In this document: piece after piece, positions 3,301 through 55,218 of the stretch | Numbering within the stretch: position 1 is the first letter of the stretch | Layout of the letters: every line of letters starts with the position of its first letter | DNA from: Escherichia phage vB_EcoP_PE007 | Length of the DNA: 64,000 bases | Strand: one strand, 5' to 3' | Sequence record: OQ938542.1 | Translations under genes and position numbers: made by a program | The notes under the pieces: generated by a model | What the model saw: only the letters and a program-made list of their open reading frames with translations | What the model was told of the DNA's origin: nothing | Databases searched by the model: none

Positions 3301-4476
3301 ATGAACCAATTTCCTCAGCACACACTTAGTGATGAACAACTCATGCGTGAGTATGACCGTATTCAGGCTCAAGCCTTCCTGGGTAAGTCTGCTGCGTTCT
3401 TTGGTTCATTGCTGTGTAGTCTTAAATTCTCATGGAAACGCGAGGATTGCCCCACTGCATGTACTGATGGGATAGAACTCCATTTCAACCCAGACTTCTT
3501 TATCTGGATGTGTCCAGATGCAAGAGAAACAGTATTAATGCACGAGTTATGGCATGTGGCATATCTACATGACATTCGTCGTGGAAGCCGTGACCCGGAA
3601 GTCTGGAACCAGGCTTGTGACCACTTCATTAACCTTCAGTTAGAAGAGGATGGTTACAAGTTCACTGGTATTGACAAAGGCATTTGCAAAGACCCTCAAT
3701 ATAAGGATTGGGTCGAAGAAGACATCTACGATGACCTGATGAAGAACCCTCAGAAAAGGCAGAAGCCGTCAGGGGGTGCTGGAGCAGGTCTTGCTGGCGA
3801 CATAAAATCCCCCACTTCGGGGCAGTCCCAGGGTGCTGTTGTCAACAACGTAGTTCGTGCAATGCAGAGCCAGAAAATGGCTGGTGGACAGATGCCTGGT
3901 AAGGGTGCTGGACGTATGGAAGAGGTTATTACCCAATTCCTTAAACCAGTGGTTCCTTGGCAGGAAGTTCTGATGAACTTCTTTACCGACATTGATGACA
4001 CTCACTATACGTGGGCCAGACCAAACCGTCGTTATACTGACACCTATCTACCTTCACTGGAAGATGATGAAGGACGCCTACGACACTTAGCTTATTTTGA
4101 GGATGTATCCGGTTCTATTAGTAGTGCTGACTCTCTGCGTTTTAACTCAGAGGTTGCCTACGTTAAGAGCCAGTTCAATCCTAAGAAGATGTCCCTAATT
4201 ACCTTCGACGATATTATCCAGGAAGAAATAGACATCACTGAAGAAGATACTTTCGAAGAAATTAAAATTACTGGTCGTGGTGGTACAAGCCTCGTGCCTG
4301 TACGAGATTGGATTATTAAGAATAAGCCAACCGCTGCAATCATATTCTCCGATATGTATGTTCGTCCAATGGAAGAATTGCCATTTGATATCCCTATCAT
4401 CTGGTGTGTTCTGAATAATCCCAATGCTACCGTACCTTTTGGGGAGGTAGTTCATATCCCTAAAGGAATGAAATAA
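3301..4476 (+). CDS. VWA-like domain protein with HExxH metallopeptidase-like N-domain (DUF2201-type)
   Basis: HELWH motif; C-terminal half resembles a VWA-like fold; immediately follows the MoxR ATPase as in bacterial MoxR-VWA pairs. Confidence 0.55.
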   Translation: MNQFPQHTLSDEQLMREYDRIQAQAFLGKSAAFFGSLLCSLKFSWKREDCPTACTDGIELHFNPDFFIWMCPDARETVLMHELWHVAYLHDIRRGSRDPEVWNQACDHFINLQLEEDGYKFTGIDKGICKDPQYKDWVEEDIYDDLMKNPQKRQKPSGGAGAGLAGDIKSPTSGQSQGAVVNNVVRAMQSQKMAGGQMPGKGAGRMEEVITQFLKPVVPWQEVLMNFFTDIDDTHYTWARPNRRYTDTYLPSLEDDEGRLRHLAYFEDVSGSISSADSLRFNSEVAYVKSQFNPKKMSLITFDDIIQEEIDITEEDTFEEIKITGRGGTSLVPVRDWIIKNKPTAAIIFSDMYVRPMEELPFDIPIIWCVLNNPNATVPFGEVVHIPKGMK

Positions 4477-48897: not shown

Positions 48898-51168
48898 TTA
48901 TAAGTTCATACCAAGAGCCGATGCTGGGTCTTGGCTAGGGTCATAATGTTGGGAACTAAGTGAATAAGTCGGGTCTTGCTGTGCAGCTAAGTCACGTTCC
49001 TGTAAAGAGTTCCCGTTAGTCAAAGCGTTATATCCGACAGCAGCAGATATGTTGGGGGTAGTTTCACCTTCTTTAGTAGGTGTTGTCAACGCCTTAGTTA
49101 TTTGAAGGTTCTGGTTTCCTTGAGATTGTGCTTTTTGTTTTTCCATATCACGAGCATGTTTAGTACCAGATTCCTGTTCCAGATAATCCAGGTCTTTAAG
49201 GTCACCACTAGAAATAGCTTCTTTAGCCTTAGCATTATTGAGTGCAATCTTACTTTTCAACTCTTCATTCTCAAGCTGTGCTTTTTGAATTGCCAATTGC
49301 TTAAGCTGTTCTTCCATAGGGTCTGGTTGTGGTCGCCAGGTACGTAATTCATGAGCAAGGTCTGGCATACGCTTAAGTTCTGCAATTTTAGCTACGAGAG
49401 ATAATGTAATAGTCTGGTCAACTGTATTACCTAACGTTTGAACCATGAAGCTCAAGTCCTGAGATTTCTGGTTATCAATTTCAGCAGTATTAATATCAAC
49501 CTCAATATCGAAATTACCTTTAAGGTCTTCACGGTTAATTTCTACGTACTGTTCATTGGTAATACGTACTACTTCCTTCTCAGATAAGAATACGGCATTC
49601 ATTGCACAAATCTTAGTACCAATGTCTGCCATACCCTTAGCTAATCGACGAAGGATTGCCATCTCACGTTTGGATGCTGCATCGAGTGCACCACGAATAC
49701 CAGCAGCCACATCTCCATAAGCTGCACCAGTTACACCTCCAGAGAATGCTTTAACACCAGTTAGTGCTTCTGCTTCCTGGTTCTGCATCTGAGTCATAAC
49801 TATTGCCGACTGAGGTAACTCAGGGAACTTATGTTCCATAATGGCCTGACTAGGGTTGCCCTGCATTGGGTTATACTCATAGTCTTGTCCGTCATCATAT
49901 CGACGTCGGTTCAGAGTATCTAACATCCCTTTAGGATAACCACGTTGCCCGTTTGCACTTCGACCTAACAGGTCAATCATCCCACGCATAGTTGCACCAA
50001 GAATTGCTTGGTTATCCCCCAACAGTTCAGCATCAGCTTCACCAAAGAGTTCACGTTTACGGGGCATGTAAGGAACAACTACCAGAGGTAACTTACCATC
50101 TGGGAACGGGTTCTTCTCCATACGAATAAGAGTAGAACCAATCCAGGTAGCAACAATTGGTTCCAGTGAACCGTCATCATTAATGTCGTAAAATCCCCAG
50201 TATTCATAAGCAATGACTTTCTTACGAAGTGCATCCTTAAACTGGAAATCACCAGGAGTTTTACTTTCATGGTCTGGGTCTGTCATAGGACTAGAACTTT
50301 CCCAGTCAATCTTATCCAGGTTGTGGTAACGGTCCTTGTTCTTCATGAGGTCTGCTTTGCAAGTCTCAAATGAGATAACTGCATAAAGAGCCTTATCCAA
50401 ATCACCATTACAGCTTGGGTCAATAACTACGTTGTTTGGGTTAAGCATTTCAACAGTAGGTCTGTTAACCAGTGCTTTCTCTACTTCAACTTCAGTAACA
50501 CCTGTCTGGATTGCATAAGTAGCTTCCCCAGTTTCATTGAAGTAATTAACAGCTTCCTTAATATCTTCTGGCATTGTTTCGTCGTACTCACGGGGATTCT
50601 CTGCCTGAAGCTGTAGTGCCTGCTGAAGAATATCTGCTTGTTCTTGGTTCTCAATTGGATACAACTGAAAGACTGGTGTTTCTGTTTTAATCTTAACAGT
50701 CTTACGTTCCCAACCAATACGAGCAATACCAGTACCGTCATCTACGACACTATGTACGTAATCATCCACCAGTTTTACTTTATTAAGCTGGGTACGGAAT
50801 TGGTAGTTAAGAACTAATTCATTCTGACGTGCAGCTAACTCATCTTCAAAAGTAACGGGAGTTACCTTAAAGAGTTTATTAGATGAGAGGAATGGTTCAG
50901 ACAATGGTGCATAACGCCATTCTGCCTGACGGCGAACCAGTCTAGGTTGGACTTGGGAACGCCCCTTCACCTTTGGAGGTTTAGCCTTACCCTTAACTTC
51001 CATCAAGTCATTCCACTCACGAATCTGGGCCATGATTGCATCGTGAGCAGGTTTAGCTGATTCCAAATCACCTTTCAGTAATTGGATACTTGGTTCCTTC
51101 TTCCAGTCCGTTAACTTCTCTGATTGAGCCGGGTCTGGTAAAGGCTTAAAAGTGTCTTGGTGTTCCAT
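48898..51168 (-). CDS. portal protein (N4 gp59-like)
   Basis: 756 aa, position upstream of capsid assembly genes; by size and synteny. Confidence 0.6.
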
Positions 51169-51170
51169 AG

Positions 51171-51698
51171 TTATTCCTGTTCAAAAAGTTTACGGTCAGC
51201 CTGGATCTGTTTACCCAACTCAATTAGTTGGCTGTCACGGAGTCTAACAGTTGCCCTGAGTTCTTCAACCAAACGTCTGCCTTCTTCAAGATTGTTGTCG
51301 AGTCTGGCTGCATGGCTTGCAAGACTTCTGCACTCAAAGGTTCCGGTTTCGGCTTGACGTTTATATACCGATGCTCGTCTTTCAGACTGTTGCATCCGGC
51401 TGTCATAATCACTGCTAACGCGAGCAAGCTCGCTTGCGTAATTACTCTCAGCCGTCTGCAACCGGGAAGTGAGTAACCCGACTTCATAACTATGGTTTCT
51501 TTGGAGAGCATTGTATTTGTCCTGTAATTTTTGTGTTGCCTTTTGGTCTTCAACCTTTTGGGCATCCCACTTCTTTTGAACAGTAGACTGTCCGTTGGAA
51601 TTACCCCAAAAGTAAATGGTGGCCCCGAGGACCACCACTAGAAGATAAGGCCAACCTTTAGAGATTAGCATCTTCATTACATGCCTCCAGTGGCACAT
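51171..51698 (-). CDS. i-spanin (Rz-like)
   Basis: N-terminal TM segment [22 protein letters not shown] followed by a charged coiled-coil-like region; contains an embedded lipoprotein ORF in another frame. Confidence 0.6.
51224..51565 (-). CDS. o-spanin (Rz1-like), embedded within the i-spanin gene
   Basis: Alternative frame wholly inside 51171-51698; signal peptide plus lipobox-like [12 protein letters not shown]; Pro-rich mature region; likely start at an internal ATG (51511 or 51487). Confidence 0.55.
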   Translation of the reverse strand: MPKRLKTKRQHKNYRTNTMLSKETIVMKSGYSLPGCRRLRVITQASLLALAVIMTAGCNSLKDEHRYINVKPKPEPLSAEVLQAMQPDSTTILKKADVWLKNSGQLLDSVTAN

Positions 51699-52293
51699 TG
51701 CCTATTCGGTTAGCTATCCAACCATACGTAAAGTCTGGCATGTTTAATGAGGTGTAGTGGTTCAGTTGTTTAGCATCTAGTAACTTAATCATTACCCGAC
51801 ATGCTGCAACTTTGCCTCGTTTTTTCTGTAATGCTTTATATGCATTAACAGTACTTACACCGACTTTACCATCAACCTGTATTTTAGGGTAGTCTTTGCC
51901 ATCACGGGACATTTCATTAAGAGATTGCTGTAACCACTTAGCCGGACGAGTTACACCAGTGTTAACACCGGCATCTACCAGCTTGTGTGTTACAGCAGGA
52001 GATATATCAGCGAAGGCTACGAAGTTAGGCTTAAGTACGTAGTCATCGATGTATATCTCAGCAGCCATCTCTTTAGATAAACCCTTCATAGAACCATCCC
52101 AGCCGTACTCAGTAGCCAGAACTTCTTTATGGGATTTAGCTACAGATTGGGTAATTCCATGATTAGTTTCCCCACCTGGGTCACGAGGATTATTTACATA
52201 ACCCCCTTCCATATAAAACACTGCCCCCAGGATAGCAGCGACAACTCCTCCCACTGCACCACCTTTCGCAGCAAGTTTCTGTTTAGCTTTCAT
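51658..52293 (-). CDS. N-acetylmuramidase endolysin (GH108-like) with N-terminal signal-anchor
   Basis: EGGYVNNPRDPGGETNHGIT signature; N-terminal hydrophobic Gly/Ala-rich segment GGAVGGVVAAILGAVFY suggests SAR-type export. Confidence 0.75.
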   Translation of the reverse strand: MKAKQKLAAKGGAVGGVVAAILGAVFYMEGGYVNNPRDPGGETNHGITQSVAKSHKEVLATEYGWDGSMKGLSKEMAAEIYIDDYVLKPNFVAFADISPAVTHKLVDAGVNTGVTRPAKWLQQSLNEMSRDGKDYPKIQVDGKVGVSTVNAYKALQKKRGKVAACRVMIKLLDAKQLNHYTSLNMPDFTYGWIANRIGNVPLEACNEDANL

Positions 52294-52543
52294 GTGAATC
52301 TTCCTTTGGTCGGAATCGTATTAATCTGCCTATGATGTTTAAGGCAAACAGTGCGATTACAATATTGGAGCCATGGGGAATATCTTCCAGGATGTGACGA
52401 GGTAATCCTGTCAGCATTGGTTGAATGATATCTATGGCAGAAAACATAATTAACCCGAGCGTACTAATCTGGATGGATGCCCACTTCCAGCATCTTTTCC
52501 AGTTAGGTACTAGCTCTACCTTTCTTTTTAGCCTGCGAACCAT
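52283..52543 (-). CDS. holin candidate (two TM segments)
   Basis: ATG 52543 with gggaga RBS (track start 52609 is GTG); two hydrophobic segments; adjacent to endolysin. Confidence 0.5.
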   Translation of the reverse strand: MVRRLKRKVELVPNWKRCWKWASIQISTLGLIMFSAIDIIQPMLTGLPRHILEDIPHGSNIVIALFALNIIGRLIRFRPKEDSHES

Positions 52544-52857
52544 GCGAATATCTCCCGTCTTGCAGCAGCCAATACACCAATAATTGCACCTGCCCCAGCC
52601 CACACCCACTTACCAAAAATTCCAGCACCAACAACTTTATGCTTAATGGTGATGAACTCTTCAATAGTAGGTTCATTCTTAGCTAAGCTATCCTCCACAT
52701 TCTTTAGTCTATTGCCTATGTCATTTATTGAATCCCGTAGTTCTACCAGAGTTTCCTCCAGTTTCTCACGGTCCTGCCTGTCCCTTGTCTGGTTCTCAAA
52801 CAGAGTCTTCAATCGTTCCTCCAGTCTGACTAGAAGCAGTTCGCCTGATTCGTTCAT
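52528..52857 (-). CDS. lysis-cassette membrane protein (holin/antiholin candidate)
   Basis: Charged coiled-coil-like N-terminus and C-terminal TM GAGIFGKWVWAGAGAIIGVLAAA; first gene of the lysis cluster. Confidence 0.45.
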   Translation of the reverse strand: MNESGELLLVRLEERLKTLFENQTRDRQDREKLEETLVELRDSINDIGNRLKNVEDSLAKNEPTIEEFITIKHKVVGAGIFGKWVWAGAGAIIGVLAAARREIFAWFAG

Positions 52858-53077
52858 AGTATTACCGTAGTTGTGTAGTTAGAATCCCCAATAGGGTCGT
52901 ATCATAAGATGACTCTTAGATAATACTTAGTATGATGGGGTACATCCAGACATAGTGTCTGGTAGCAACCCATGGTGGATGGTATTTAGTTAGGTATGTT
53001 TAACATATCCGGGCAAGTAATTACCCTAACAGCAGTATCGGTTAGGGTAATGCAAACAGTAAACTCTATATGAGAAA

Positions 53078-53094
53078 AGGCCCAAACTGGGCCT
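53078..53094 (-). terminator. terminator after tail fibre gene
   Basis: aggccc-aaact-gggcct directly after the stop at 53104; T-rich on the minus strand. Confidence 0.5.
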
Positions 53095-53103
53095 TAGTTT
53101 TAA

Positions 53104-55218
53104 TTAAATCAATCCATAAACTGCATTGTGTATTACGACACCCCCAACAACTGAAGAAACATTAAAATTAATTTCAGCTTTGTAGGCTCCTTGTGGAACG
53201 CAATCCACCAAAGCATAAAAGTTGAACGTGTTTACCACTGGGATGATATATCCTATGGAATCCGCAACAGTATTTCCTTGCTGGTCCAGGAATCTAATTG
53301 ACGCCAGGGTGGTTGTTGTATTTTTAGCCCAAAAACCAAGCTGAAAATAACGACCCGGTTCACAATCAATGATTGTTTGGGTGAAGTTAGCTGCTGCATC
53401 TGCTGATGGTACAGATAAAACAAAAGAAGTTGTAAACATTAAATTGTTAGGAACATCGTTTGCTGTAGTAGCAGTGACAACGCCTGTTCCAGTTTGCGAG
53501 AGTGTCCAGTTAGATGTGTTTTCAAACTGTCCTGAGCCATTGCTAATGCTATTAATATAAGGGCTTACAATGCTTCCTAGATTCCAGTTAGTTGTAATAA
53601 ACCCTGCACGAGGGAAGCACCCTCTGGACATTACTTTTTTGCTAGCGCCACCTATCAACTGTCTTGTAGCAAATCCAGTAGCAATCGTTGTGTTACCGTA
53701 GAGGGGCAATGAGCAGTTATTTAAACTAACTACCCCGTCACCATTACTAACAATAGGCACTGTACTGTAGCCTTCCGGAAGCAGAATAGTAGAATCTTTA
53801 ATACTGAGGCGTGAGCTTCCACTCACAGTAAAGCCTACAAAACTCTGCCCAGGTTGATACTCAATATTACCGTTAGCAAATACTAAGGTAGCATTACCAC
53901 TTAATGCCACTACTGGATCGAAGTAGCCTGCCTTTTTACCTGCTGGTAATGAGCATGAATCAAAGATGAACTGCCCATTCTCAAATGTAAATGGACCCCC
54001 ATTATCAACCATCCAGCAGTGGTTGAATTTTATAACCTCACCAGCATTAGCCGGGGAATTAAAGATTACAGAGTTAGTAAAACTGCGAGAAATGGTGCAC
54101 TTATCAAACAGGATACGGTATGCATTATCTTTAAACTCAATACCTGCGGTAGATATAAACCCGCAGTTAGATATACGTAATTCTGCTATCTCCCCTCCAG
54201 TACTACTGCCCAAGCACATCTTTCGAGTACCTTTACCTACAAAGGAAATACCTGTTAATAGGGCAGTAGCATTAATGGCATCACGGGCTGTGTAATCTGT
54301 ATTAGAATTGATTACGGTTAAGTAATACTCTCCTGTTACACCTTCCACTTCCGTAAGGGTACACTTATTGGCTCCTACTAAAGCCCCCTTAGATACATCC
54401 AGTACGATAGGTGTACTAATAGTCCCTGATGTAGGTACAAGACAATCGTAACCGGCAGAGTTTACCTTGTTAATGAACGGAGCAATGTCCCCAGTACCAG
54501 TATAGCCTGCATCGTATACCGTAGCAGTACCTTCAAAGAACTTACGCTTCCAGACCACACCTGCACCGGTGAAAGTTACAACTTCATCTACAGGAGTAGT
54601 ATTAGGAACCGCAATCATAATACCCCCACCAACGGAAGAACCTGAGTATGAATCTAGCATTACACTAGACCCTACTGTTGCTCCGACAGAGGCCAGGGCA
54701 GTTACGTCGGGTACACTACCAATTAAAGTCATACCATCCTGAGATGCCAACTGAGCACGCAAATTAGGATCCGTTTGGGACTTCCAATCCGTGTTGCCAA
54801 CAGGGTTGGCCCCTTCAACAATAGTTACGGGTAGAGAACCTAAGTAGGTATAACCAATACCATTATGCATCAAAAGCTCATTTCGAGTATTTACTACTAA
54901 GCCCGTAGTAAATGAATCAGATAAGCATACAAACTCTCTACGTGCAGCAGCCAGTTCGCCTAAATCAATAGTACCAGCTGAATGAACCAGGACTGCGTGT
55001 TCGTTAAGACTAACAGCAGTAGTTCCTACCGGAAGTACAGGTAATGAGTAAGCACGTTGGGTAGCCTTATCATAAATTACTTTGTATCCACCCAAGTCCA
55101 CACCTACAGAAAAATAAACCACCTCATTCTGCTTAACACCAAACTTACGGGCAATGGCTTGCTTATTGGTAAGAATACCAGTGGAGCCTTTACCACCTTG
55201 GGAGAACATCTCGTTCAT
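53104..55218 (-). CDS. tail fibre / tailspike protein
   Basis: 704 aa, Gly/Thr/Ser/Asn-rich beta-rich composition, adjacent to the second spike gene, followed by terminator. Confidence 0.5.
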   Translation of the reverse strand: MNEMFSQGGKGSTGILTNKQAIARKFGVKQNEVVYFSVGVDLGGYKVIYDKATQRAYSLPVLPVGTTAVSLNEHAVLVHSAGTIDLGELAAARREFVCLSDSFTTGLVVNTRNELLMHNGIGYTYLGSLPVTIVEGANPVGNTDWKSQTDPNLRAQLASQDGMTLIGSVPDVTALASVGATVGSSVMLDSYSGSSVGGGIMIAVPNTTPVDEVVTFTGAGVVWKRKFFEGTATVYDAGYTGTGDIAPFINKVNSAGYDCLVPTSGTISTPIVLDVSKGALVGANKCTLTEVEGVTGEYYLTVINSNTDYTARDAINATALLTGISFVGKGTRKMCLGSSTGGEIAELRISNCGFISTAGIEFKDNAYRILFDKCTISRSFTNSVIFNSPANAGEVIKFNHCWMVDNGGPFTFENGQFIFDSCSLPAGKKAGYFDPVVALSGNATLVFANGNIEYQPGQSFVGFTVSGSSRLSIKDSTILLPEGYSTVPIVSNGDGVVSLNNCSLPLYGNTTIATGFATRQLIGGASKKVMSRGCFPRAGFITTNWNLGSIVSPYINSISNGSGQFENTSNWTLSQTGTGVVTATTANDVPNNLMFTTSFVLSVPSADAAANFTQTIIDCEPGRYFQLGFWAKNTTTTLASIRFLDQQGNTVADSIGYIIPVVNTFNFYALVDCVPQGAYKAEINFNVSSVVGGVVIHNAVYGLI

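Follow-up and report, generated by a model that had tools for sequence, protein, structure and literature searches.

A predicted embedded spanin pair of the N4 gp60/gp60a family in the lysis cassette of a Gamaleyavirus coliphage

We report that a locus on the minus strand of Escherichia phage vB_EcoP_PE007 (sequence record OQ938542.1) very probably codes for a two-component spanin that belongs to the N4 gp60/gp60a family, with one gene embedded in the other, and that it forms the last pair of the gp63-gp62-gp61-gp60 lysis cassette of a Gamaleyavirus coliphage. The window, i.e. the whole stretch of DNA that was analysed, covers 64,000 nucleotides. Frame 0 of the locus is predicted to give a 168-aa product, the i-spanin, and frame +1 of the same mRNA stretch a lipoprotein precursor of 87-95 aa, the o-spanin. 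Conservation across related phages is the decisive evidence for the predicted inner gene. An embedded spanin pair of this kind is already known: it has been catalogued in near-identical phages and it is functional in N4. By megablast of 51100-52900, which matched 87 phage records, the phage of the window is a Gamaleyavirus, a G7C-like member of the Schitoviridae and a relative of N4; the best matches, with 95-97% nucleotide identity, were the Gamaleyavirus phages Bp4, PD38, ECBP1, St11Ph5 and pSb-1.

The original prediction, made from the letters and a list of open reading frames, had placed a lipoprotein ORF (51224-51565) inside an i-spanin ORF (51171-51698) in a different frame. The ORF listing contains both as given (113 and 175 aa, respectively) and the inner one lies wholly within the outer one, in the +1 frame since (51698-51565) mod 3 = 1 (start offset 133 nt). 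Both are on the minus strand, which the prediction had left out. Its coordinates are correct for the maximal ORFs but not as gene limits, as the likely starts lie further in. With the starts preferred here, the o-spanin gene at 51224-51511 is still contained in the i-spanin gene at 51171-51677 in the +1 frame, i.e. in the embedded two-component architecture as defined by Summer 2007 and Kongari 2018. The features of the pair are:

51171..51677, minus strand: i-spanin gene, N4 gp60 homologue (168 aa plus stop; start of the maximal ORF at ATG 51698)
51684..51688, minus strand: i-spanin Shine-Dalgarno sequence GGAGG (6 nt 5' of ATG 51677; upstream sequence TGTGCCACTGGAGGCATGTA-ATG)
51603..51656, minus strand: i-spanin N-terminal transmembrane segment (residues 8-25, approximately; the only 19-residue Kyte-Doolittle window >1.6)
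51224..51511, minus strand: embedded o-spanin gene, N4 gp60a homologue (95-aa precursor plus stop)
51520..51523, minus strand: candidate o-spanin Shine-Dalgarno sequence AGGA (8 nt 5' of ATG 51511; ACAGGACAAATACA-ATG; consensus match only)
51392..51403, minus strand: lipobox T-A-G-C (Cys codon 51392-51394, predicted lipid-modified residue 1 of the mature protein)
51227..51394, minus strand: mature o-spanin (56 aa; continues NSLKDEHRY after the Cys region)

The outer ORF matched the Rz-like spanin family PHROG 6197 (E=3e-77), with the alignment beginning at residue 8 of the long ORF. For the i-spanin the most likely start codon is ATG 51677 (MKMLISKGW...), in preference to ATG 51698 of the maximal ORF. 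The GGAGG that precedes ATG 51677 falls within the 3' end of the endolysin gene, and the same ATG is used in St11Ph5 gp60.2 and in the SpaninDB entries for Bp4 and ECBP1, for which the supplement of Kongari 2018 records an identical Shine-Dalgarno sequence.

For the start of the o-spanin 14 distinct Gamaleyavirus-like sequences were compared; a scan of IMG/VR for relatives gave only nine further loci, mostly copies from isolate genomes. ATG 51565, the start of the maximal inner ORF, is not the conserved start because of intervening stops in six of the 14 relatives, which have a stop before the signal peptide or lack the ATG as well as having a stop. The case for ATG 51487 (MKSG, common to N4) as the only start is weakened: two of the 14 (ECBP1 and one metagenomic relative) have ACG there, and the Shine-Dalgarno sequence preceding it is poor. 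ATG 51511 is kept in all 14, and since the other two are not, 51224-51511 is the best-supported o-spanin gene; at the position of its candidate AGGA, Moo19 and L032 have AAGGG. St11Ph5 gp60.1 is annotated identically to 51224..51511. The SpaninDB offsets of 190 nt for Bp4 and 166 nt for ECBP1 correspond exactly to 51487 and 51511, respectively, and ATG 51487, which would give an 87-aa precursor, is possible as an additional start. Counted from ATG 51511 the lipobox Cys is residue 40, so that the signal peptide would be a long one for a lipoprotein.

The signal peptide and the lipobox-like TAGC that had been read from the inner ORF are both present, as a hydrophobic stretch followed by TAGC. 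The n-region has a net charge of +4, the uncharged h-region comprises 14-17 residues, and the -1 and -2 residues of the box are small (Gly and Ala), as expected of a lipoprotein signal; Thr at -3 is off the strict consensus. The TAGC box also presumably passes the PROSITE PS51257 pattern. A second lipobox-like motif in the n-region, SLPGC, was rejected, there being no hydrophobic stretch ahead of it.

We compared the pair in 24 Schitoviridae sequences, namely the window and 23 annotated loci of phages infecting Escherichia, Shigella, Klebsiella, Pseudomonas, Achromobacter, Burkholderia, Stenotrophomonas, Xanthomonas, Erwinia, Delftia and Alcaligenes. The lipobox Cys is found in all 24, as are small residues and an uncharged stretch before it. 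TAGC itself is restricted to the Gamaleyavirus/Moovirus clade; at the aligned position the other genera have the canonical boxes LAGC, LTGC, LSGC, ISGC and IVGC, and the Cys is therefore the feature that is conserved. The +2 residue is Asn in the window and N, S, G or A across the homologues, and the Asp that would lead to Lol avoidance occurs at +2 in none of the 24, as predicted for a lipoprotein sorted to the outer membrane. The mature o-spanin has no Cys other than the lipidated one, so a disulfide-linked dimer could involve the i-spanin only.

The non-consensus lipobox and the long signal peptide with its two starts most likely represent neutral variation of the signal sequence. It is also conceivable, if improbable, that the three features which set the Gamaleyavirus o-spanin apart from its relatives, namely the TAGC box, the long signal peptide (31-39 residues) and the two in-frame starts, are functional and not the product of neutral drift. 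Two precursor isoforms, or deliberately slow processing of the lipoprotein, could then tune the timing of spanin competence, on the model of the dual starts of lambda S.

The Thr at -3 and the unusual length of the signal peptide would also be compatible with a conserved secreted protein that is not an outer-membrane lipoprotein: it would be cleaved by signal peptidase I, or TAGC would be a poor Lgt/LspA substrate so that the protein is retained in the inner membrane, and its role would be that of a partner or regulator of gp60 in the periplasm or the inner membrane, and not that of a classical o-spanin. We consider this very unlikely. The strict lipobox consensus according to Kongari 2018, [LVI][ASTVI][GAS]C, is departed from by Thr at -3, and other deviant spanin lipoboxes are reported as functional in the same study. 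Moreover, Gly at -1 and Ala at -2 are preceded by uncharged residues at -5 to -10, and the canonical boxes in the other genera and the lack of Asp at +2 in every homologue likewise argue for the lipoprotein reading.

The open +1 frame was dropped as the chief argument for an inner gene because its significance in shuffles is only marginal. In the window this frame is open for 137 codons, compared with a mean of 76 and up to 167 in synonymous-codon shuffles (P=0.017); codon-permutation shuffles gave P=0.001. Open lengths like those of several relatives arise readily in the synonymous shuffles (P = 0.13-0.46). Figures of this kind leave room for the inner ORF to be a chance open frame with a coincidental 'lipobox', such that the i-spanin alone is expressed and the outer membrane is disrupted otherwise; the composition of a coiled-coil gene rich in Q/E/R/K/L/A would account for the few +1 stops. 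Likewise in keeping with chance, the inner product is matched by no profile database: searches of the o-spanin against the Pfam, PHROG and NCBIfam profiles gave nothing above threshold, the only match being Omp28 (E=0.075) over the signal peptide. A lipoprotein-like ORF, defined as Met, K/R, an uncharged stretch, a lipobox and at least 30 aa downstream, arose in 0.1-2% of the shuffles.

What distinguishes a gene from a chance frame is found in the comparison of relatives. Each of the 24 sequences has 77-146 open codons in the +1 frame as well as the conserved core of the o-spanin including LLDSVT, and the mature protein is 56 aa in 17 of them (N4 included) and 54-63 aa in the whole set. By tblastn the o-spanin was present in 158 phage records and the i-spanin in the same number, with the same counts per organism name. 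The measures of dual coding were made on 18 diverse non-redundant sequences. Diversity at codon position 3 of Rz was 0.68 in the N-terminal non-overlapping part, 0.56 in the signal-peptide overlap, 0.32 in the mature overlap and 0.66 in the C-terminal non-overlapping part, and the corresponding values for a different synonymous codon at identical Rz residues were 0.59, 0.51, 0.26 and 0.59. Within the mature overlap the diversity at position 3 is lower than that at position 1 (0.39), and constraint is weaker in the signal peptide than in the mature o-spanin. In an ungapped block of 162 nt the mean pairwise amino-acid identity was 0.58 in each of the two coding frames and 0.47 in the third frame. 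The pattern is the one expected where two genes overlap and purifying selection acts on each, as it does on both frames here.

Both findings on which the original prediction hinged, a lipoprotein signal and a conserved inner frame, are borne out by the Cys shared by all homologues and by this selection. We regard a chance frame as the least credible reading, to be given almost no weight, because the lipobox Cys is kept and the mature length stays within 54-63 aa even in homologues with no more than 35-45% i-spanin identity, the drop of synonymous variation in the Rz frame to less than half coincides precisely with the mature o-spanin, which contradicts chance, the +1 translation is conserved as much as the Rz frame and above the third frame, and one cloned fragment with N4 gp60 and its embedded gp60a gives spanin function.

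One locus in the comparison deserves separate mention. In Burkholderia phage vB_BpP_HN02 (locus 545-1309) the i-spanin frame is open for 254 codons, into the portal region, and the embedded ORF alone is annotated, as a 'hypothetical protein'; the C-terminus of its o-spanin is extended and carries two additional Cys. A frameshift, an error in sequencing or a truly extended variant could account for this.

Only one segment of the i-spanin is hydrophobic (residues about 3-25); the segment is helical in the AlphaFold2 (AF2) model, and the predicted topology is that of a type II inner-membrane protein. After the transmembrane domain 33% of the residues are charged (D/E/K/R). In the single-sequence AF2 model (mean pLDDT 77) a helix at 9-111 is followed by a break at 112-115, which adjoins the only Cys, and a second helix at 116-167; as modelled, this two-helix layout is the one described for i-spanins. 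For the Bp4 i-spanin, which is 97.6% identical, the supplement of Kongari 2018 gives 93% helicity by Jpred and two coiled-coil segments. A search of PDB sequences with the i-spanin gave no match at E<=1.

Most members of the family have the lone periplasmic Cys of the i-spanin (near 51333-51335, minus strand), but six of the 24 lack it. Two of these six, Delftia phage RG-2014 and Erwinia phage S6, have gained a Cys in the mature o-spanin (NVCPKP and VQCPKP, respectively), and in JWAlpha, Axy12, QDWS595 and Zuri neither partner has a periplasmic Cys. Such gains and losses bear on the general role that has been proposed for intermolecular disulfides of spanins.

Within the codons for the i-spanin transmembrane segment we also noted a terminator-like hairpin (51615-51639, minus strand) with an 11-bp stem including six GC pairs, followed by TACTTTTGGG. 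The records of PhAPEC7 and SP5M carry an annotated 'terminator' beneath the spanin match. The hairpin could be due to chance, or could act in transcription attenuation or affect spanin translation.

The gene context had been described as an N4-like lysis cassette, and indeed the spanin pair lies directly 3' of a GH108 endolysin and of gp62 and gp63 homologues; the order portal gp59, gp60, gp61, gp62, gp63 is that of N4 and of annotated relatives. The neighbouring genes are:

48898-51168, minus strand: portal gene gp59
51658..52293, minus strand: endolysin, N4 gp61 homologue (overlaps the i-spanin start by 20 nt)
52283..52543, minus strand: gp62 homologue (86 aa, two transmembrane domains; start taken from St11Ph5 and Bp4 gp62)
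52528..52857, minus strand: gp63 homologue (109 aa, helical in its N-terminal part and with a hydrophobic segment at the C-terminal end)

The endolysin matched Pfam Glyco_hydro_108 (E=6e-20) and PG_binding_3 (E=1.5e-7) as well as the endolysin family PHROG 315. It is an N-acetylmuramidase with a Gly/Ala-rich N-terminal SAR-like segment, is named gp61 in the annotation of relatives, and corresponds to N4 gp61, which was shown to be a SAR endolysin (2025 N4 preprint). The gp62 homologue matched Pfam DUF7940 (E=2e-13) and PHROG 1356, a holin family, and the gp63 homologue, which is called gp63 in relatives, matched PHROG 5211 (E=3e-50; function unknown in PHROGs). According to the same preprint gp63 is the pinholin and gp62 a non-essential lysis regulator. 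The label 'holin' given to the gp62 homologue by PHROG 1356 and most GenBank records, and the label 'tail length tape-measure protein' given to the gp63 homologue in Bp4 and others, are in conflict with these roles.

Past gp63 the module at 52858-55218 varies among relatives that are otherwise 95-97% identical. Bp4 has there a plus-strand CDS of 654 nt, orf14 (locus 3356-4009), followed by a tail spike, St11Ph5 has the tail fibre gene gp63.1, and the window has a 704-aa ORF (53104-55218, minus strand) with a GC-rich hairpin and T-run preceding it (53077-53095, plus strand). This suggests mosaic exchange of receptor-binding genes beside the lysis cassette.

By analogy with what the literature describes for lambda Rz/Rz1 and N4 gp60/gp60a, the o-spanin would be lipidated, cleaved by signal peptidase II and Lol-sorted to the outer membrane, and its C-terminus would bind the C-terminus of the i-spanin to form a complex across the periplasm through the peptidoglycan mesh. 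Release of the gp61 SAR endolysin by the gp63 pinholin would destroy the mesh and leave the spanin complexes free to change conformation; the freed complexes would fuse the inner and outer membranes, and the last barrier to progeny release would be gone. For the pair of the window, we infer lipidation, outer-membrane sorting and complex formation from this analogy. In N4, gp60 together with the embedded gp60a complements a lambda Rz-am Rz1-am lysogen (2025 preprint).

With respect to annotation, the embedded gene is already present in the records of the type species G7C (gp60', 'embedded within ORF60'), St11Ph5 (gp60.1), Mimir124 (as a manual misc_feature), AlfredRasser, Pokken and Paxi. Kongari et al. 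2018 place both i- and o-spanins in an embedded family, 'N4 (12)', which has N4 gp60/gp60a as its type members and includes Bp4, EC1-UPM, ECBP1, pSb-1, G7C and PhAPEC5/7. In many other records (e.g. those of Bp4, ECBP1 and PD38) the embedded gene is missing or the i-spanin is cut short, and the annotated o-spanin start varies with the Gamaleyavirus record, being the equivalent of 51487, 51511, 51565 or a position further upstream. Annotation is inconsistent even among near-identical genomes, ECBP1, PD38 and PD205 included; the o-spanin is left out of many records, or the genes are listed as hypothetical. The Bp4 record (KJ135004.2) contains no more than a truncated 'Rz/Rzl spanin' CDS of 225 nt (locus 1572-1796), and in a record of one Klebsiella phage the region is called 'RIIA lysis inhibitor'. 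The inconsistency for the o-spanin is probably due to the fact that no Pfam, PHROG or NCBIfam profile detects it. The practical value of the present data lies in the annotation of therapeutic-candidate coliphages in GenBank/RefSeq and to little extent in discovery: our comparative analysis indicates ATG 51511 as the genus-wide conserved o-spanin start, and the dual-coding signature is a worked example that could serve for automatic flagging of embedded genes.

Compared with known spanins, the pair of the window is closest to its Gamaleyavirus relatives (G7C, St11Ph5, Mimir124, Bp4, ECBP1, pSb-1 and PhAPEC5/7), with 95-99% identity for the i-spanin and 93-99% for the o-spanin; these are annotated as an embedded pair of Rz/Rz1-like genes and differ from the window by no more than point substitutions, e.g. 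Met or Thr at lipobox position -4. In N4 the i-spanin gp60 is 57% identical (tblastn, E=2e-38), and gp60a is 77-78% identical over the mature o-spanin (tblastn E=1e-22; 78% over 54 codons), with the same mature length of 56 residues (2025 preprint). N4 and the window share the +1 embedding, the single periplasmic Cys of the i-spanin and the location between the gp61 endolysin gene and the portal gene. They differ in the signal-peptide region, where the lipobox is IVGC in N4 and TAGC in the window and where N4 has a nearer Met, giving MKSLLILLLTSTIVGC, and in the divergent N-terminal half of the i-spanin. With both proteins homologous and the embedded frame under purifying selection, the pair of the window is, as judged from sequence, a member of the N4 gp60/gp60a family.

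The likeness to lambda that the original prediction had pointed out holds for the gene arrangement: as in Rz/Rz1, the i-spanin gene contains the entire o-spanin gene, which is read in the +1 frame. Lambda Rz/Rz1 and the N4 homologues are functionally interchangeable (2025 preprint). The pair of the window also has in common with Rz/Rz1 a predicted type II inner-membrane protein with a two-segment helical periplasmic domain, a small Pro-containing putative outer-membrane lipoprotein, and the location at the distal end of the lysis cassette. Neither spanin of the window matched the Pfam Rz (PF03245) or Rz1 families above the gathering score, and the only sub-threshold match was to DUF2514 (15 bits, cut-off 26); the likeness to lambda is one of architecture and mechanism, without detectable sequence homology. 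The mature o-spanin of lambda is 40 aa, unlike the 56 aa of the window, and lambda Rz1 forms a homodimer disulfide through a periplasmic Cys that the o-spanin of the window lacks. Finally, the N4-type pair works together with a SAR endolysin and a pinholin, whereas that of lambda works with a canonical holin.
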